A stretch of 32,544 bases of DNA from Erysipelotrichaceae bacterium (GTDB taxonomy: Bacteria > Bacillota_I > Bacilli_A > RFN20 > CAG-449). The first letter of the stretch is position 1. Each line of letters starts with the position of its first letter. Of this stretch, positions 1,434 through 20,259 are shown piece after piece. A program made the position numbers and the translations under genes. The notes under the pieces are model-generated. The model was not told the origin of the DNA. It did not search any database and saw only the letters and a program-made list of their open reading frames with translations. The stretch covers positions 1 through 32,544 of the forward strand of contig JALFBO010000106.1 of the NCBI GenBank assembly GCA_022772105.1, given 5' to 3'.

Positions 1434-2414
1434 ATGACCAAATTAATGATATTAGCTTCCATTTTTTTATCTTCTAATATAGGTATAAAACCTGTCGAGG
1501 TATATATTGGAGGGGAAAATATAGTATTTGAATTAAATGATGTAGGAATTACAGTAACTGGAGGATATGACATCAACTATAATAATACTAAATATAATCC
1601 CATTGATAGTAAAGATATTAACGTGGGTGATGTAATCGTGGGTGTAAATGGAGAAAAAATCAAAGGAATAAATGATTTTGTAAAAAAAATATCATCCTTT
1701 AATGAATACGTAATCTTAAATATTGATAATGGAAGTGATAAAAAGATAAATATTTGTAAAGAAAATGGAATGATTAAGACAGGATTATATGTTAAGGATA
1801 AAACGTTAGGAAGTGGAACATTAACTTTTATTGATCCAAAATCATCTTATTATGTTGCTTTAGGCCATCCCATTTTTGATATAGAAAGGAAAAAGAAAGT
1901 AGAATTTGAAGAAGGAGCCATATATGATACTTCGGTAGAAGGAATAAAAAAAGGCTGTAATGGAAATCCTGGAGAAAAAATAACTAGTACTAGACTTGAT
2001 AACAAGATAGGAAATATAATTAAAAATGATAGTTTTGGTCTATTTGGCAAAATCATTGGTGAATTTATAAATAATAAACAAAAATATCAAATATGTCCAA
2101 AGAATAATGTTAAACTTGGGACAGCTTACATCTATACCGTAATAAAAGGTGTAAATAAAGAAAAATTCCTCATTGAAATTACATCATTACATAAACAAGA
2201 TGAAAATGGTCAAAAAGGCATTGAATTTGAAATAAAGGATAAATATCTTCTTTCTGTTGCAGGAGGAGTGTATTCAGGAATGTCAGGATCACCTATCATT
2301 CAAGATAATAAGATTATCGGGGCAGTTACTCATGTCAAAGTTGATAATATAAAACAAGGATATGGATTATATGCTTCTAATATGTATCAAAGATTAGAAT
2401 CGTTCACCAAATAA
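1434..2414 (+). CDS. spoIVB: SpoIVB-type S55 serine peptidase (sporulation sigma-K checkpoint protease)
   Basis: It has an N-terminal hydrophobic anchor and a PDZ-like segment (GDVIVGVNGEKIKGINDF). The His motif is VALGHPIFD and the Ser motif is GMSGSPIIQDNKIIGAVTHV. A purine-rich SD (GAGGTGGAG) lies immediately upstream. It is about 100 aa shorter than B. subtilis SpoIVB as I remember it. Confidence 0.85.
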   Translation: MTKLMILASIFLSSNIGIKPVEVYIGGENIVFELNDVGITVTGGYDINYNNTKYNPIDSKDINVGDVIVGVNGEKIKGINDFVKKISSFNEYVILNIDNGSDKKINICKENGMIKTGLYVKDKTLGSGTLTFIDPKSSYYVALGHPIFDIERKKKVEFEEGAIYDTSVEGIKKGCNGNPGEKITSTRLDNKIGNIIKNDSFGLFGKIIGEFINNKQKYQICPKNNVKLGTAYIYTVIKGVNKEKFLIEITSLHKQDENGQKGIEFEIKDKYLLSVAGGVYSGMSGSPIIQDNKIIGAVTHVKVDNIKQGYGLYASNMYQRLESFTK

Positions 2415-2560
2415 GCGAATATATAAAAAAATAGTCTCAAAAAATGAGATTTACACAAAAAAATGGAAAAAAACATTATATCAAGTATTTTTTCCTATAA
2501 TAATAAGATAAATCAAGGAAACTTGATGAAGTAATGATAATAGCTACAGGAGGGGCATAT

Positions 2561-3334
2561 ATGAAGAAAAAAAGCATTTTTATCATTAATGAATCACAAA
2601 AATTAATTGAAGATATTAAGGAGGAAGTACAAAGAAGAGACGATATAGAAATATGTGGGGCGTATACATCCTCAAAAGAAGCATTACTAAGAATTAAACA
2701 ATTGAATCATATTGATATGTTAGTAGTAGAACTTGTTTTACCAGATTTAGATGGATATGAAATAATAAGGGAAATAAAAGAAAATAAGGACTCATATCCA
2801 AAAATTGAAATAATTGTTGCTCAATCGGCATTAGTGAATGCTTCAGTTTTAGAAATGGTAAACAAAAGCGGAGCAAATCTATTCTTACAAAAACCATATA
2901 AGATTCAATCTTTATTTAATATGTTCAATTCACTAAATGAGGATAGTAAATCAAATAAAGAAGAAATAGATTTAGAAAAAAGGATTACCAAGATTCTGCA
3001 TGATGTAGGAATACCTGCACATATAAAAGGGTATTCTTATCTAAGAACCGCGATATATTGTTCATATAATAATAATGACTATATTGGACAAGTTACAAAA
3101 GTACTTTATCCAGAAATTGCCAAAAAATATAAAACTACTGGATCACGAGTAGAAAGAGCAATTCGCCATGCAATTGAAGTAGCGTGGAATAGAGGAAATG
3201 TTGATACCATAGATGATATTTTTGGCTATACTATATCAGCATCAAAAGCAAAACCAACTAACAGTGAGTTTATTGCGATGATATCTGACTATATTTCTGT
3301 TGAAAATGAAAGATTAATGTCTAAATTAGCATAA
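2561..3334 (+). CDS. spo0A: Spo0A, master sporulation response regulator, with non-canonical receiver pocket
   Basis: The C-terminal domain is almost identical to the Spo0A signature ([68 protein letters not shown]). I chose the start at ATG 2561 because AGGAGGGG lies at 2548-2555. The tracked Met at 2534 has no SD. Confidence 0.95.
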
Positions 3335-3364
3335 TAAGTATATAATTAGTATAATTATAGTAAT
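3335..3364 (+). repeat. three 11-nt-phased TTAGTATA-like octamers (TAAGTATA taa TTAGTATA att ATAGTAAT) directly after the spo0A stop
   Basis: Read directly. The units start at 3335, 3346 and 3357. The 17-mer AGTATATAATTAGTATA (3337-3353) is identical to 18410-18426. Confidence 0.5.
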
Positions 3365-3366
3365 AA

Positions 3367-3396
3367 AATGGTAAATAGAAATATTTGCCATTTTTT
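3367..3396 (+). terminator. rho-independent terminator of spo0A
   Basis: AATGGTAAATA (3367-3377), loop GAAA, TATTTGCCATT (3382-3392). This is an 11-bp stem with one G-U pair, running into TTTTTTATTTT. Confidence 0.7.
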
Positions 3397-3426
3397 ATTT
3401 TAATAATTATTATGTAAACAATTTAT

Positions 3427-3434
3427 TGTATAAT
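3427..3434 (+). promoter_or_regulatory. extended -10 element TGTATAAT upstream of dinB
   Basis: TGnTATAAT-type box 22 nt before ATG 3456. The -35 is weak (ATTATT). No GAAC-N4-GTTC LexA box was seen. Confidence 0.35.
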
Positions 3435-3455
3435 TAAATAGGTGGAGGATAGACT

Positions 3456-4640
3456 ATGGCAAAAATTATTATGCATATAGATTTAAATGCTTTTTTTGCA
3501 ACTGCAGAGACAATTAAAGATCCTTCACTAGAAGGAAAGCCTTTAATAATCGCTGGATCATCACGAAGGGGAATAGTGTCCACAGCTTCTTATGAGGCGA
3601 GGAAATTTGGAATACATTCGGCAATGCCAACCTACATGGCGCAGCGATTATGTCCCTCTGTTATTATTAGAAACGTAGATTTTGAATTATATCATCGTTT
3701 ATCACAAGAATTTTTTGCATTTGTGAGAGAATATACTTCAATTATTGAAATTGCTTCTGTAGATGAATGTTACGCTGATATGAGCGAATGTATGAAAGAT
3801 TGTAAGAATCCCCAAAAGTTTTTGGAAGATTTACGTGATAATCTATATAAAAAGACAAAATTAAAATGTTCCATTGGGCTTGCACCTAATAAATTTTTGG
3901 CAAAAATGGCTTCCGATTTCAAAAAACCTCTTGGAGTGACCATTATTAGAAAAAAGGATATTCCATCTATTTTATGGCCGCTTCCAATTAAAGATATGTA
4001 TGGAGTTGGAAAAAAGACGTATCCACGTCTAGAAGCCCTTGGTATCAAGACAATTGGTGATTTGGCAAAATGTGAAGATATAGAAGTAAAAAAAACTTTA
4101 GGGAAAGGTTTTACCGTTTTAAAAGGATGGGCAAATGGAGATGGTGATGACACTGTATCGACTGAGGAAATGGATCCAAAATCTATAGGACATTCTTCGA
4201 CATTTTTATTCGATACAGATGATTATGAAGAAATTAAGAAAAAGCTTTATGAACTAAGCTTAGAGGTTTCAGAAGACGCGAAAAAGAAGGATAAAGTGGG
4301 AACTACAATTTCAATCGTGATGAAAACTCCTGATTTTATAACCACTAATAGATCTATATCAATAAGTATTCCTACAAATGAAGGTGAAATTATCTATAAT
4401 AATGCAATGAAACTATTTGATAGTAATTATAAAGGTAATCCCATTAGATTAATTGGAGTCACATTATCAAATTTAAAAGAAAAAGAAAACTTTTTTGTGC
4501 AAATGAATTTGTTTGATATGGAAAAAGTAAGAGAAGAAAATGCTACAAAATTATTATTGAATGAATTAAATGCTAAATTTAAAAATAAAAAAATATTTAT
4601 TGCCGCAAGTGAATTGGAGAAAAAACATGAAAAAAGATGA
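3456..4640 (+). CDS. dinB: DNA polymerase IV (Y-family translesion polymerase)
   Basis: Motifs MHIDLNAFFATAE, SVDECYADM and LAPNKFLAKMASDFKKP are present, and the SD is GGTGGAGG. An internal clamp-binding-like QMNLF lies at 4500-4514. Confidence 0.9.
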   Translation: MAKIIMHIDLNAFFATAETIKDPSLEGKPLIIAGSSRRGIVSTASYEARKFGIHSAMPTYMAQRLCPSVIIRNVDFELYHRLSQEFFAFVREYTSIIEIASVDECYADMSECMKDCKNPQKFLEDLRDNLYKKTKLKCSIGLAPNKFLAKMASDFKKPLGVTIIRKKDIPSILWPLPIKDMYGVGKKTYPRLEALGIKTIGDLAKCEDIEVKKTLGKGFTVLKGWANGDGDDTVSTEEMDPKSIGHSSTFLFDTDDYEEIKKKLYELSLEVSEDAKKKDKVGTTISIVMKTPDFITTNRSISISIPTNEGEIIYNNAMKLFDSNYKGNPIRLIGVTLSNLKEKENFFVQMNLFDMEKVREENATKLLLNELNAKFKNKKIFIAASELEKKHEKR

Positions 4641-5535: not shown

Positions 5536-6732
5536 ATGAATAAAAGATATAAACGTGTATTTATGATTGTTATGGATTCACTAGGAATTGGTGAAATGGA
5601 AGATGCATCTAAATATGGAGATAAAGGAACAAATACATTTGTTCACATTTCCGAAAAAGTTAATGGACTTAATATACCAAATTTAAATAGTCTAGGAATT
5701 GCTGATTTAGGACCGATTAAAGGGACTTACAAAGTATCTCATCCCCATTCTTATGTTTTTAAATCAAAAGAAGCATCAAATGGAAAAGATACAATGACTG
5801 GACACTGGGAAATGATGGGAATATTTACCCAAAAACCATTTAAAACTTTTACAGATACGGGATTTCCTAAAGAATTGATAGATGAATTAGAAGAGAAAAC
5901 GGGAAGACATATTGTTGGTAATTGTTCAGCTTCAGGAACTGAAATTATTAAATTATGGGGAGAACACCAACTTAAAACAGGAGATTTAATTGTCTATACT
6001 TCCGCAGATTCAGTTCTTCAAATCGCAGCACATGAAGAAATTATACCTGTGCAAGAACTTTATAAATATTGTCAAATTGCTCGAACAATTTGCCTTAGAG
6101 AAGAATATTTGTTAGGAAGAATTATCGCTCGTCCATTTATTGGAACTTCAAAAGATAACTTTAAGCGTACTTCTAACCGCCATGATTATGCTTTATCACC
6201 ATCTGGCATTACATATATGGATTTATTGAAAGAAAAAGGGTATACAGTATCTTGTATTGGTAAAATTAATGATATTTTTAATGGTCAAGGCGTTACAAAA
6301 ACCCAACGAACAATTTCAAATAATGATGGAATGGATAAAACTATATTAGAAACCAAAGAAGAATTTGAAGGATTATGTTTTGTTAATCTAGTTGAATTTG
6401 ATTCTGAATTCGGTCATAGAAGAGATCCAAAGGGGTATGGACACTGCATAGAAGAATTCGATGCTAAATTAGGAGAATTACTACCTTTATTACATGATGA
6501 TGACCTTTTAATTATTACCGCAGACCATGGAAATGATCCTACATGGACAGGAAGTGATCATACTAGAGAAAAAGTCCCAACTATTTTCTATAGTAAATCA
6601 ATCCAAAATGGTCGTTTATTGGAGGAAAGATCCTCTTTTGCGGATATGGGAAGAACCATATGTGAGAATTTTGGTATTGAAAAAGAAAATACCCAAATAG
6701 GAGATGTTATTAATGAAATATTTGAAAAATAA
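5536..6732 (+). CDS. deoB: phosphopentomutase
   Basis: Motifs MDSLGIGE, NLVEFDSEFGHRRD and TADHGNDPT are present. The SD is GAGGAG. Confidence 0.9.
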   Translation: MNKRYKRVFMIVMDSLGIGEMEDASKYGDKGTNTFVHISEKVNGLNIPNLNSLGIADLGPIKGTYKVSHPHSYVFKSKEASNGKDTMTGHWEMMGIFTQKPFKTFTDTGFPKELIDELEEKTGRHIVGNCSASGTEIIKLWGEHQLKTGDLIVYTSADSVLQIAAHEEIIPVQELYKYCQIARTICLREEYLLGRIIARPFIGTSKDNFKRTSNRHDYALSPSGITYMDLLKEKGYTVSCIGKINDIFNGQGVTKTQRTISNNDGMDKTILETKEEFEGLCFVNLVEFDSEFGHRRDPKGYGHCIEEFDAKLGELLPLLHDDDLLIITADHGNDPTWTGSDHTREKVPTIFYSKSIQNGRLLEERSSFADMGRTICENFGIEKENTQIGDVINEIFEK

Positions 6733-7732
6733 ATTGTCTGTAGGGGGATGTTTACTTATAACATCCCTTTGTGCTACTTCTTGTTTACAAATTCATACAT
6801 ATGATCCATTAGAATTTAAAATTATTTGTAATCGTGGCCCAATAGCTTACGTTTTATGTGGATATTTTGATGATGATAATTTGAATGTTTCTAAAGATGA
6901 ATCACAAATTGAGAAAGCTTTTGAAACAAATGAATATGGCATTATTGGCTATGACACAATAAAAGGATTAGAACTTTGTGAAAAATATGATAATTATGTC
7001 CTTTTACAAAACTATTGTGGCGGTAGTTATACTCTTATTTCCACTAATCCAGAGGTCAGTAAAACTTTTGAAGGATGTAAAATCTTAGCAAATAACGAAA
7101 AAGGGACCTTAGGAGCGATTTTAAACTTCGTTAAGGGTAATTTCAATATCGATGACGTTTCTTTCGTAGAGAGCCCTTCTTATGAGTTTTATAGCGATAT
7201 AAGAAGTGGAAGATATTTATCTGATTATGATTTTATTGCATTAAAAGCACCTTATGCTCAAAGACTTATATCTAATGACCAAGAGGATAACAAAGCTTTT
7301 GGAAATGTTTGTCAGTCTTTTAGATTATATAATATCTATGGACAAATGATGGATCCAAATACGCTAAATTATGACAAATATTATTATGCTGAGGACTCAT
7401 TGTTCGTAAGCAAAGATCTATTAAACAATAATTCGTTAAATAAGAATTATCAATCATTTATTGATACAACAAATATAATAACAGATAAAGCAATTAATGA
7501 TCCATATCAAACCATGACTCAATTCAATCGAAAAACTAACAAGAGGGATGTTCAATTTGAAAATTACGGTTATTCCATTGATGAAATTGGAGAACTACAA
7601 AATTGGGAACAACATAACAATGTAAAAATTCCTTATAATTATACTAGATTTTCAACAACATTTAGCAATTCAGACTTACAAGATTATCTAAATTTAATTG
7701 GAAAAAGTTTTGATGAGAAATTATTTTATTAA
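6713..7732 (+). CDS. hypothetical exported protein, possible lipoprotein (Cys-containing signal peptide)
   Basis: AGGAG at 6699-6703 sits 9 nt before ATG 6713, and the CDS overlaps the deoB end. The N-terminus MKYLKNKLSVGGCLLITSLCATSC is signal-peptide-like, but neither Cys fits the lipobox perfectly. I recognised no family. Confidence 0.6.
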   Translation: MKYLKNKLSVGGCLLITSLCATSCLQIHTYDPLEFKIICNRGPIAYVLCGYFDDDNLNVSKDESQIEKAFETNEYGIIGYDTIKGLELCEKYDNYVLLQNYCGGSYTLISTNPEVSKTFEGCKILANNEKGTLGAILNFVKGNFNIDDVSFVESPSYEFYSDIRSGRYLSDYDFIALKAPYAQRLISNDQEDNKAFGNVCQSFRLYNIYGQMMDPNTLNYDKYYYAEDSLFVSKDLLNNNSLNKNYQSFIDTTNIITDKAINDPYQTMTQFNRKTNKRDVQFENYGYSIDEIGELQNWEQHNNVKIPYNYTRFSTTFSNSDLQDYLNLIGKSFDEKLFY

Positions 7733-12324: not shown

Positions 12325-12330
12325 TGCTTG

Positions 12331-13029
12331 ATGATAAATTTAATAAGTGCTTTTCTTTCTCTTTTTAATGTTAATTATTTCTTAGGTTTTATTAAAAATG
12401 GTGTCTTCCCTCTAAAACTTGATGAAAATGAAGAAAATGAATATGTAAAAAAACTGTTTATAAAAGAAGAACATGATGAAGCAAGAGAAAAATTGATTGT
12501 TCACAATCTTCGTTTAGTGGCCCATATTGCAAATAAATATGAGTCAAAAGATGAGAATGTTGAGGACCTAATATCGATTGGAACAATAGGTTTAATTAAA
12601 GCGATTGATACATTTTCGCCTGAAAAAGATGTAAAAATTGCAACTTATGCCGCTAAATGTATTGAAAATGAAATACTGATGGTTTTAAGGTCAAATAAAA
12701 AATTATCAAAAAATGTTTCTTTACTAGATAGTATTGGTTCTGATAAGGATGGGTCTGACATTACCCTACTTGATGTTATCCCAAGCTCAGAACGCTTAGT
12801 AGAAGAAGAATATGAGCATAATCTTGATTTAAATAAATTAAAATCATACCTTCATGTCTTAGATGAACGAGAAACTATGATCATTAATCTTAGATATGGG
12901 TTAAATGGAAATAAAGAATTAACTCAAAAAGAAATCTCAAAACTTTATAAAATTTCTAGAAGCTATGTTTCAAGAATAGAAAAAAGAGCTCTTGTGAAGC
13001 TCCTTTCTGAATTTAAAAGAAATTCCTAG
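12331..13029 (+). CDS. sigK: sporulation sigma factor SigK (pro-sigma-K, uninterrupted)
   Basis: A hydrophobic pro-sequence (MINLISAFLSLFNVNYFLG) is followed by FIKNGVFPLKL. Motifs IVHNLRLVAHIANKY, DLISIGTIGLIKAI, ATYAAKCIENEILM and ISRSYVSRIEKRALVKL match my memory of B. subtilis SigK more closely than SigE. There is no skin-like insertion and no visible SD. Confidence 0.85.
   Translation: MINLISAFLSLFNVNYFLGFIKNGVFPLKLDENEENEYVKKLFIKEEHDEAREKLIVHNLRLVAHIANKYESKDENVEDLISIGTIGLIKAIDTFSPEKDVKIATYAAKCIENEILMVLRSNKKLSKNVSLLDSIGSDKDGSDITLLDVIPSSERLVEEEYEHNLDLNKLKSYLHVLDERETMIINLRYGLNGNKELTQKEISKLYKISRSYVSRIEKRALVKLLSEFKRNS
12980..13004 (-). terminator. candidate parC terminator embedded in the last codons of sigK
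   Basis: The minus strand reads AGGAGCTT-CACAA-GAGCTCTT followed by UUUU (A-run 12980-12985 on the plus strand). It begins about 22 nt past the parC stop. Confidence 0.45.
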
Positions 13030-18724: not shown

Positions 18725-19207
18725 TTATGAGTTAAATTCTACAAATATCATAGGCTCTTCTCCAAGAGTTTCTTGTACTGTATATATAATATCCACTACA
18801 TCATATTTTGTTGGATTTTGTTTGTGAACTAATACATTTATATTTACTTCTTGAATTTGAACAAAACAATGAGAATATCCTTTACTAATAATCGTATTTT
18901 CTAAGAGAAGCTCATTTTTCATCGTTTTTTCAATGTTATAAATAGAAGTTAAGGCGACTTCTTTTTCAGTATTTGTATAAGATGAGCAGCTTATTTCTCC
19001 TTGAAGTTCGGAAATAAGAAAATAATATCCTTCATCTCTATCGGTTTTGAGAGTATCAAAATATGCACTTGTTGGATCTGACACAACTTGTGCCACAGGT
19101 TCAGTTTTATTGGAAGAAGATGAAGCAAAAGGAATTAATACATAATATACAGACAGAAGAAGAACGATACTAAATAAGGATAAAAAAGCAACTAGTTGAC
19201 GATTCAT
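18725..19207 (-). CDS. spoIIIAH: SpoIIIAH-like protein (N-terminal TM plus ring-building-motif-like domain)
   Basis: I compared it with my remembered B. subtilis SpoIIIAH. FLSLFSIVLLLSVYYVLIP corresponds to LLTMLSLVVVLSVYYIMSP. YFDTLKTDRDEGY corresponds to FTTYRLDLEDARSKE. LENTIISKGYSHCFVQIQEVNINVLVHKQN corresponds to LETLIKTQGYEDALVNAEGDKINITVKSDK. The end IFVEFNS corresponds to VAVTFEPS. SD is GAGGGGA. Confidence 0.6.
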   Translation of the reverse strand: MNRQLVAFLSLFSIVLLLSVYYVLIPFASSSSNKTEPVAQVVSDPTSAYFDTLKTDRDEGYYFLISELQGEISCSSYTNTEKEVALTSIYNIEKTMKNELLLENTIISKGYSHCFVQIQEVNINVLVHKQNPTKYDVVDIIYTVQETLGEEPMIFVEFNS

Positions 19208-19257
19208 AATTAAAATCCCCTCTTCTAATATATATTAATTAACAAATCAAAATATGT

Positions 19258-19279
19258 AAAAAAAAAGGCCCAAAGGCCT
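19258..19279 (-). terminator. rho-independent terminator of efp
   Basis: The minus strand reads AGGCC-UUUG-GGCCU followed by U9 (A9 at 19258-19266 on the plus strand), starting 5 nt after the efp stop. Confidence 0.6.
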
Positions 19280-19284
19280 AATAT

Positions 19285-19845
19285 TTATTTTGCTCTAGAA
19301 TCATATGATCCATCGCTTGTACAAACGATGATTTCTTCATTATTCTCAACAAATAAAGGTACACGGACTTTAAGTCCTGTTTCAAGATACGCATCTTTTA
19401 ATGCTTTATTTACTGTGTCTCCTCTAACAGCTGGTTCACATTTTGTAATTAATAGAGTTACTTTTGCAGGTAATTCAACACCAAGAATTTCCCCATTTAA
19501 CATAGTAATTGTAACGATTGATTCTGGTTTTAAGAAATTTAATTCCCATTCAAGTCTCTCTTTTGGAATAGATACTTGGTCGTAAGTTTCAGTATCCATA
19601 AATACTAAACCATCACCATCATCATAAAGATATTGCATTTGTTTTTTGTCTAAATGAATTACTTCTACTTTATCTCCTCCGATAAAAGACATATCTAATG
19701 TAGCGCCTGTTTTTAAGTTTTTGGATTTAACTTTGACTTTCATTTTTGCCATAGCGGTCTTATTTAAATCAATATCAAGACAAGTATATGGTGTACCTTC
19801 CCAAACATAAGTGTTTCCTGGTCTTAATTCTGTTACGTTAATCAT
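19285..19845 (-). CDS. efp: elongation factor P with atypical beta3-beta4 loop
   Basis: It is collinear at full length with B. subtilis EF-P (MINVTELRPGN, MQYLYDDGDGLVFMD, VPLFVENNEEIIVCTSDGSYDSRAK). SD is AGGAGGA. Confidence 0.9.
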   Translation of the reverse strand: MINVTELRPGNTYVWEGTPYTCLDIDLNKTAMAKMKVKVKSKNLKTGATLDMSFIGGDKVEVIHLDKKQMQYLYDDGDGLVFMDTETYDQVSIPKERLEWELNFLKPESIVTITMLNGEILGVELPAKVTLLITKCEPAVRGDTVNKALKDAYLETGLKVRVPLFVENNEEIIVCTSDGSYDSRAK

Positions 19846-19854
19846 AAAATCCTC

Positions 19855-20259
19855 CTATTTTCTTTTGTATTTTACACAATTTTTGTAGAAGATGGAATAG
19901 AAATATAAGTAAGAAGTAAAAATTATGATTGAAAACAGGCAGATTTCTCCTTCTAAAAATAGAATATCATTAAATATAAGTTTTCTAATTGATGTTATTA
20001 AAATATAGATTATGATTCCAATTATGAAATAACTGTATAAAGACGATATATTATTAACTATTTTAATGAAAGATAGAAGAAATAAAAAAAGAAAAATCAC
20101 TAAAATTAATGCTATCATATTTTGAAAATATGAAGAATATAACTTGATGTTATGTGAGTAATATGGGCAAAAATTTAATAGATATGAAAGATCTAATAAT
20201 AGAACAAAAAAAGAGCTTGTAACTAGACAGATGATGATTCGATCTAAAATAATTATCAC
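19855..20259 (-). CDS. hypothetical polytopic membrane protein
   Basis: This is a 405-nt open frame in AT-rich DNA where stops are frequent, with about 4 hydrophobic segments. The only start is GTG 20259, which itself lies in a GAGGTG string. I recognised no family. Confidence 0.45.
   Translation of the reverse strand: MIIILDRIIICLVTSSFFVLLLDLSYLLNFCPYYSHNIKLYSSYFQNMIALILVIFLFLFLLSFIKIVNNISSLYSYFIIGIIIYILITSIRKLIFNDILFLEGEICLFSIIIFTSYLYFYSIFYKNCVKYKRK

Follow-up and report, generated by a model that had tools for sequence, protein, structure and literature searches.

Endospore formation is universally gated by Spo0A, which reviews describe as switched on, in all spore-formers, through phosphorylation of a conserved aspartate; in most gut anaerobes the Bacillus phosphorelay is missing, and what triggers sporulation there is not settled. 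How could this switch be operated in a lineage in which the aspartate itself has been replaced? The question is raised by a spo0A gene located at positions 2561 to 3334 (forward strand; 257 amino acids and a stop codon) of a stretch of 32,544 nucleotides, contig JALFBO010000106.1 of the assembly GCA_022772105.1 from an Erysipelotrichaceae bacterium, the whole of which is referred to below as the window. An earlier note on this DNA, made from the letters alone, described a Spo0A with glutamate at the phospho-acceptor position and an otherwise rewired receiver pocket, and suggested that the protein may be uncoupled from any phosphorelay or kinase input. The computational analysis presented here indicates that the aspartate-less Spo0A is a real, selected and lineage-wide variant and an instance of a wider, hardly described pattern; the mechanism by which it would work is plausible but unproven.

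Identity of the gene and its receiver pocket

The coding sequence is delimited by the list of open reading frames and by matches to Pfam and to TIGR02875, the NCBI equivalog model of Spo0A (219.9 bits, cut-off 200). The likely start is the ATG at 2561, which lies 7 nt after a GGAGG, and the homologues begin with MKKKSIF or MEKK; use of a second in-frame ATG upstream, at 2534, is improbable. The CheY-like receiver domain, an aspartate-less pseudo-receiver, occupies positions 2561 to 2935 (residues 1-125; Response_reg, PF00072, at residues 6-121 with 49.5 bits, above the cut-off), and the DNA-binding and transactivation domain Spo0A_C occupies positions 2984 to 3295 (residues 142-245; PF08769, 148.2 bits). 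In phmmer searches the latter domain matches the PDB structures 1LQ1 and 1FC3 with E=2e-47, and its residues V197-E206, K231-I238 and others, which include the recognition helix, are invariant among 70 homologues. Identity to canonical Spo0A is 65% in the DNA-binding domain, and in the receiver it is 22% with respect to B. subtilis. Directly upstream of spo0A lies an intact spoIVB (1434 to 2414, forward strand; peptidase S55, 212 bits in Pfam) preceded by recN, and a dinB-type polymerase gene and xerD follow downstream; the order asp23-nusB-xseAB-recN-spoIVB-spo0A-dinB-xerD is common to the window and the loci L081, L083, L084, L085 and L086. The window gene is a genuine spo0A orthologue at the classical spoIVB-spo0A position. 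The closest species-level genomes in the GTDB set, named 'Bacillales bacterium' and 'uncultured Bacilli bacterium', encode Spo0A proteins 57% and 54% identical to that of the window, and Erysipelotrichales come next in this comparison; with its G+C content of 29%, the host is an uncultured gut-type bacterium of a low-G+C Bacilli lineage related to Erysipelotrichales. The possibility that the Glu-type proteins are paralogues of Spo0A was rejected by synteny for the window lineage and for several Oscillospiraceae, a rejection that leaves out the loci without an adjacent spoIVB (L019, L021, L035, L042, L051, L059, L062 and L075).

In phmmer comparisons with PDB receivers, the B. subtilis segment 'vcvaDDnre' pairs with 'ifiiNEsqk' of the window protein, and 'dvlvlDiimPhldG' pairs with a 14-residue window segment in which Glu57 falls under the acceptor Asp; MAFFT alignments of 120 and then of about 200 Spo0A homologues give the same columns. 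The Asp-Asp metal-binding pair is replaced by Asn10-Glu11 (AAT at 2588-2590 and GAA at 2591-2593, all codons here and below being on the forward strand), and Glu57 (GAA, 2729-2731), at the C-terminal end of strand beta3, stands in place of the phosphorylated Asp (D56 of B. subtilis). Ser89 (TCG, 2825-2827) takes the place of the conserved Thr/Ser (T86 of B. subtilis), and the stretch 2882-2893 extends from Phe108, the aromatic switch residue (TTC), to the conserved Lys111 (AAA), both of which are kept. The overall pocket thus reads N-E / E / S / F / K: compared with the canonical five-residue active site (DD, D, T/S, K), the residues N10, E11, E57, S89 and K111 include two that differ in kind and one Asp-to-Glu change. 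Because Glu57 fills the acceptor column, and does so in every alignment, the gene is an orthologue by descent that is devoid of the regulatory hallmark of its family. With the domain profile and fold recognised and Glu at the acceptor, the receiver falls within the definition of aspartate-less receivers, or ALRs (PMC4395418, PMC12632262).

These alignments bear out the reading frame, the codon coordinates and the placement of N10, E11, E57 and K111 given in the earlier note, and where a genuine Asp was looked for in the acceptor column, Glu57 was found instead. The note went astray at the conserved Thr, which it held to be replaced by Ala in a register that was off by two: 'vimlTAfg' pairs with 'iivaqSAlv', so that in both phmmer and MAFFT the residues T86-A87 of B. 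subtilis correspond to S89-A90 of 'IIVAQSA', and the residue in question is Ser89. Serine at this position is a conservative change that is usual across the whole clade, and C. difficile Spo0A natively carries it (S86). Nor is the Lys the only pocket residue retained, as had been stated, given that Ser89, Phe108 and Lys111 are all present and position 11 is acidic as well; the Asp-Asp pair has indeed been replaced, but only half of it is lost. Judged by its residues, the pocket is less degraded than had been held. The view that a Glu acceptor with a degraded acidic pair marks an atypical regulator agrees with published surveys, where this combination is the commonest among aspartate-less receivers (PMC4395418, PMC12632262).

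An AlphaFold2 model of the window Spo0A, built with 70 homologues, has a mean predicted local distance difference test score (pLDDT) of 89.7, and of 90-96 in the receiver, which is predicted with confidence to keep the CheY fold, a check that the earlier note had proposed. The strands (beta1, residues 4-9; beta3, 50-57; beta4, 81-89; beta5, 107-110) follow the canonical (beta-alpha)5 order; E57 ends beta3, K111 follows beta5, N10 and E11 follow beta1, and S89 lies at the C-terminal end of beta4, which supports its assignment to the Thr/Ser position. In Foldseek comparisons, the root mean square deviation is 1.6 Å between the receiver model and the phosphorylated Spo0A receiver 1QMP, and 1.1-1.7 Å between the model of the C-terminal domain (C-domain) and 1FC3/1LQ1. 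With canonical Spo0A (B. subtilis and C. difficile; 1QMP, 1LQ1, 1FC3), the window protein shares the two domains, the position after spoIVB, the recognition helix, the receiver fold and the Ser/Thr, Phe and Lys residues, but its acceptor is Glu rather than Asp and the first residue of its acidic pair is Asn. In the canonical protein, D10, D11, D56 and K108 are all required for sporulation and phosphorylation.

Could Glu57 simply be a sequencing, assembly or alignment artefact, given that Asp (GAT) and Glu (GAA) are only one base apart? The probability of this is negligible. The identical 257-residue protein is encoded on 129 contigs from independent sources (NCBI, ENA, Logan), Glu is found in four diverged lineages, three alignment methods concur and the model places E57 at the end of beta3; contigs, relatives, alignments and model have already refuted the artefact reading, and the error at GAA 2729-2731 that the earlier note had allowed for is excluded. 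All listed members of the 90% cluster that cover the pocket positions keep N10, E11, E57, S89 and K111, and the Glu acceptor also occurs in the syntenic loci L083 (88% identity), L081 (85%) and L084 (63%). Codon 57 is GAA in the window, L081, L082 and L083 and GAG in L084, and therefore Glu has been preserved through a synonymous change. The combination of substitutions, about which the earlier note had asked whether it is lineage-wide, is so in part: Glu57 recurs in the four related lineages, the acidic pair in L083, L081 and L084 reads N-E, N-D and E-D (AAT or GAG at position 10 and GAA, GAG, GAT or GAC at position 11), and the Thr-to-Ala component was wrong. The substitutions are real, fixed in the species and common to its relatives. 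L084 (P0004/P0137 clade), which lies farthest from the window within its Glu clade, has Leu (TTG) at the equivalent of K111, and therefore the pocket is degrading further in this branch.

Selection on the receiver and the sporulation context

Between the window and its close relatives, the ratio of nonsynonymous to synonymous substitution rates (dN/dS) is 0.09-0.15 for the receiver and about 0.01 for the DNA-binding domain, against 0.03-0.12 for housekeeping neighbours and 0.18-0.25 for spoIVB, all of these being rough values because synonymous sites are near saturation (dS about 0.9-1.3, pS about 0.6). The receiver is under purifying selection, so that the selection claimed for the gene extends to the receiver itself. 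Asp-type Spo0A pairs of like divergence display the same contrast between the domains (75-88% identity in the receiver and 98-100% in the C-domain), and the receiver diverges 2.7 times as much as the C-domain in the larger Glu clade, against 2.55-2.58 times in two Asp clades. Since the Glu-type divergence matches the Asp-type, there is no sign of relaxed constraint; relaxed selection on the receiver is ruled out by the dN/dS values together with this comparison of domains.

Other sporulation genes of the window are in keeping with this picture. The gene for the late mother-cell sporulation sigma factor, sigK (12328 to 13029, forward strand; NF004471, 284.8 bits, cut-off 252), has a dN/dS of 0.05-0.06, and spoIVB is free of internal stops in four lineages. 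A SpoIIIAH-like gene is present at 18725 to 19207 on the reverse strand (PF12685, 52.5 bits, cut-off 30.6). An intact sigK and spoIVB under selection, along with the SpoIIIAH-like gene, argue that the sporulation programme is still used. As to the arrangement of these genes, sigK is single and uninterrupted, with no intervening element, and lies between yqeG and parC, as it does in L081, L083 and L085. The SpoIIIAH-like gene stands directly after efp (18725-19845, reverse strand) with no spoIIIAA-AG between, which fits the streamlined sporulation set known from Erysipelotrichaceae.

A different account would make spo0A a relic in a non-sporulating lineage and attribute the receiver changes to relaxed constraint. 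It could draw on the survival of spo0A in many non-spore-formers, on the loss of many sporulation genes in Erysipelotrichia and on the isolated position of the SpoIIIAH-like gene. This account is nevertheless very improbable in view of the low dN/dS of both domains, the retention of Glu despite a synonymous codon change, the intact state of sigK and spoIVB, and a divergence between receiver and C-domain like that of Asp-type Spo0A.

Distribution of non-aspartate acceptors

The substitution is not confined to the window's own clade. A second Glu clade of 17-19 clusters (P0012-P0036) belongs to the same broad lineage and shares the gene order from asp23 through sigK; all its members have Glu at the acceptor, and their second acidic residue is replaced by Ser, Asn, Gly or Cys. 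In neighbour-joining bootstrap trees of this short protein, constructed with the pocket columns masked, the second Glu clade is recovered with 100% support, as is the grouping of the window protein with P0002, and the union of both Glu groups in one clade receives 3%. Asp-type (D-D-D) proteins are placed between and outside both Glu groups, so that two origins are most likely, and Glu in the second clade most likely appeared independently, as far as trees of these sequences indicate.

Further afield, about 20 of the best 80 GTDB loci have a non-Asp acceptor. Glu-type spo0A directly follows spoIVB in the Oscillospiraceae loci L018, L032, L033, L040 (Flavonifractor sp. An100), L047 and L048, and likewise in a metagenome-assembled genome (MAG) of Coprobacillus (L067). 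Among the 120 clusters nearest to the Spo0A of Flavonifractor sp. An100, 103 have Glu and 17 have Asp at the acceptor, and in all of them the second residue of the pair is non-acidic; the named members of this type are annotated plainly as Spo0A. The alternation of Asp and Glu among close Flavonifractor-like relatives suggests that the acceptor is no longer tightly constrained in this group. Across the Oscillospiraceae (L013-L080; P0296-P0415), the second residue of the pair is hardly ever acidic (Ala, Thr, Val, Ser or Pro), including in proteins with an Asp acceptor. A partly Erysipelotrichaceae subclade carries Asn, Ser or His at the acceptor (P0053, P0063-P0066, P0074, P0080, P0097 and P0104; L007 and L028), and several of its members also have Gln, Leu or Ser in place of the conserved Lys.

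In all Glu-type Spo0A the Thr/Ser residue is kept, the Lys is replaced in just three proteins, once by Leu and twice by Arg, and the second acidic, metal-binding residue is usually lost. The Glu-type Oscillospiraceae proteins (Flavonifractor sp. An100, WP_087393638.1) and the clusters P0012-P0036 have the Glu, Ser/Thr, Lys and adjacency to spoIVB in common with the window, but in them it is the second residue of the pair that is lost (to Ser, Asn, Gly, Cys, Thr, Ala or Val), the first staying Asp/Glu, whereas in the window protein the opposite is the case.

When the C-domain alone was searched against 1.8 billion representatives, 68 of the best 150 matches were of full-length size, with approximately 50 Asp, 6 Glu, 6 Asn, 3 Ser and 5 other residues in the acceptor column, a few of these being misaligned. 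The best scorers for this query are proteins of 240-470 amino acids with 2-4 tandem Spo0A_C domains (P0148-P0155, P0159, P0163, P0171-P0173 and P0177), an architecture unfamiliar to us.

A single trace of this pattern came to light in the literature searched. A supplementary table of the 2015 survey of aspartate-less receivers lists, without comment, 7 ALRs among 391 proteins of the Response_reg~Spo0A_C architecture (PMC4395418), and the 2025 review of pseudo-receivers, with its supplements, does not mention Spo0A (PMC12632262). No discussion of a natural Asp-less Spo0A was found in the full-text literature searched, a body of text that has most subscription journals outside its coverage.

Proposed control of Spo0A without the acceptor aspartate

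What, then, could control the window Spo0A? The answer that we favour, and hold to be somewhat better than an even bet, is that an aspartate-less pseudo-receiver operates without His-Asp phosphotransfer, with Glu57 as a mimic and with an output governed by dosage and/or a partner. With the Asp acceptor gone and the metal site damaged, His-Asp phosphotransfer would be very unlikely on the grounds of receiver chemistry (PMC4395418, PMC12632262). The carboxylate of Glu57, one methylene longer than that of Asp, would probably be found in the place of the acyl phosphate and touch Ser89 and Lys111, and these contacts would bias the receiver to the active, dimer-prone state in the absence of a metal ion. 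The output of Spo0A would be set by the abundance of the protein, with the spacer upstream of the gene as a candidate place of control, and/or by a partner that binds it, rather than by a kinase or phosphorelay; gut Firmicutes seem to have arrived at this solution more than once. Control of this switch is probably independent of phosphorylation, and by analogy Glu57 may be a partial phosphomimic; uncoupling from any kinase is what we infer from the pocket residues.

This proposal has parallels in other receivers. The retention of Thr/Ser and Lys in Glu-type Spo0A, where the second acidic residue is usually lost, fits a metal-free phosphomimic, and Glu, the commonest residue at the acceptor of aspartate-less receivers, can mimic phosphorylation in several regulators, where it partly stands in for the acyl phosphate by engaging these two residues (PMC4395418, PMC12632262). 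The aspartate-less receivers, among them Chlamydia ChxR, plant PRR/TOC1 and fungal Rim15p, likewise consist of a Response_reg domain without the acceptor Asp, which Glu replaces in 26% of them, and they usually keep the Lys and have a degraded acidic pair (PMC4395418). They differ from the window protein in that its output domain is Spo0A_C and its role that of the master regulator of sporulation, and in that it loses the first acidic residue and keeps the second, whereas ALRs keep the first in 65% and the second in 29% of cases (PMC4395418). ChxR, whose acceptor residue is Glu, needs no phosphorylation to be active (PMC4395418, PMC12632262); its activity is not abolished by Glu-to-Asp or Glu-to-Ala replacement, so that Glu is not necessarily the source of activity (PMC4395418). 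Engineered Asp-to-Glu mimics (NtrC D54E and others; acceptor mutants of B. subtilis Spo0A) carry the same substitution at the same position, but they are laboratory mutants of phosphorylatable proteins, whereas the substitution in the window is naturally fixed along with accompanying changes of the pocket.

Several considerations weigh against the proposal. A passage of PMC4395418 citing Green et al. 1991 states that the Asp-to-Glu change alone is not enough to render B. subtilis Spo0A constitutive. The D10A, D11A and K108A variants of C. difficile Spo0A have lowered dimerisation and sporulation, so that Asn10 might weaken activation instead of mimicking it. Some Clostridiales carry two spo0A copies, and the gene context considered here is that of the 32.5-kb window only, so that kinases, Spo0F/Spo0B or a second, canonical spo0A could sit elsewhere in the genome. 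Finally, the dN/dS estimates are rough, as mentioned above, and strong conservation of the receiver would equally fit a conserved partner, for example a kinase acting by binding.

It is these data on the Asp-to-Glu mutant of B. subtilis and on D10A/D11A of C. difficile that make a partner-dependent pseudo-receiver the main rival. Under this explanation, which we consider unlikely, Glu57 would be no phosphomimic, the pseudo-receiver would be fixed in a neutral or inhibitory state, and activation of Spo0A would come from another input, which could be a protein partner, a small ligand or a different modification such as phosphorylation of Ser/Thr or methylation of Glu. Besides the failure of the Asp-to-Glu change alone to activate B. 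subtilis Spo0A, the relevant passages of PMC4395418 refer to alternative modifications in ALRs, a phosphomimic role has been refuted for some proteins (PMC12632262), and the receiver is conserved over its full length, as expected for partner docking. On the other hand, a mimic fits better than a dead pocket with the presence of Thr/Ser in every Glu-type Spo0A and of Lys in nearly all of them, together with the loss of the metal residue; the surroundings of the pocket show no new clade-specific Asp, Ser or Thr, the relatives do not conserve D62, and the Glu-type loci have no extra conserved neighbour gene. Phosphotransfer might instead be retained, with a glutamyl phosphate formed on Glu57 or with some other residue as the target, and with the kinase encoded elsewhere in the genome. 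Part of the catalytic set does survive, in that position 11 is acidic and Lys111 and Ser89 are kept, and Glu is chemically phosphorylatable (PMC4395418). We consider this improbable all the same: signalling through phospho-Glu has no known example in bacteria (PMC4395418), one metal ligand is gone with Asn10, the pocket has no alternative conserved Asp, and the residues found at the second acidic position (Ser, Asn, Gly or Cys in the sister Glu clades and Thr, Ala or Val in Oscillospiraceae) are incompatible with Mg-dependent phosphotransfer.

For a control of Spo0A by abundance, the spoIVB-spo0A spacer (2415 to 2560, forward strand) offers a candidate element. The spacer contains the ribosome-binding site (RBS) GGAGG at 2549-2553 and, 5' of it, a 31-nt stretch (2510-2540) with the perfect palindrome ATCAAG-GAAA-CTTGAT (2512-2527). 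The stretch is identical in the window, L081 and L083 despite near-saturated synonymous sites, and is therefore a candidate control element, possibly a site of transcriptional control; it is not kept in the more distant L084. A hairpin, TCTCA-AAAAA-TGAGA, located right after the spoIVB stop codon (2435-2449) and kept in L081 and L083, has no T-tract and is thus not a typical terminator. The spacer contains no 0A box with at most one mismatch, and in the window as a whole the five matches to the 0A box TGTCGAA (2.4 expected; as many in 7 of 100 shuffles) are not above chance. One exact heptamer, at 1393-1399, is situated 35 nt upstream of the spoIVB start and is present in L081 and L083 and absent from L084. 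No terminator was found in 2300-3500, where promoter-like sites numbered 13 against 9.9 expected; the fold of the spo0A leader RNA (2480-2580) is not significant (z = -1.37), with a predicted RBS pairing that is not conserved in L081, and an Rfam scan of the whole window gave no matches.

Two further reading frames of the window, one of 342 amino acids (6704-7732, forward strand) and one of 134 (19855-20259, reverse strand), have no Pfam or NCBIfam match; a Pfam-less counterpart of the former, of like size and position, is called in L081, L082, L083 and L084. In one Glu-clade species, an island of about 7 kb lies between spo0A and dinB (L086, 7998-14838; L087, 6651-13491), encoding an AAA ATPase, a Band_7/zinc-ribbon protein and a 958-residue TIR-domain protein, and resembles an insertion for anti-phage defence.

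With respect to the wider pattern, the prospect that gut Firmicutes have on several occasions detached entry into sporulation from His-Asp phosphotransfer is a tentative one, to which we give slightly less than an even chance; the candidates may include the Bacilli lineage of the window, the sister Glu clade, many Oscillospiraceae, including the cultured Flavonifractor, and the Erysipelotrichaceae variants with Asn, Ser or His. If this is true, the textbook rule that Spo0A is universally activated through the conserved Asp fails, and dosage or a partner would decide on sporulation. A natural Asp-less Spo0A provides a concrete alternative for gut anaerobes, namely control by abundance or by a partner, and supplies natural variants with which the gating of the DNA-binding domain by the receiver can be dissected. 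Spore formation is widely predicted from the presence of spo0A in MAGs, and both such predictions and the search for kinases may have to consider which residue stands at the acceptor.

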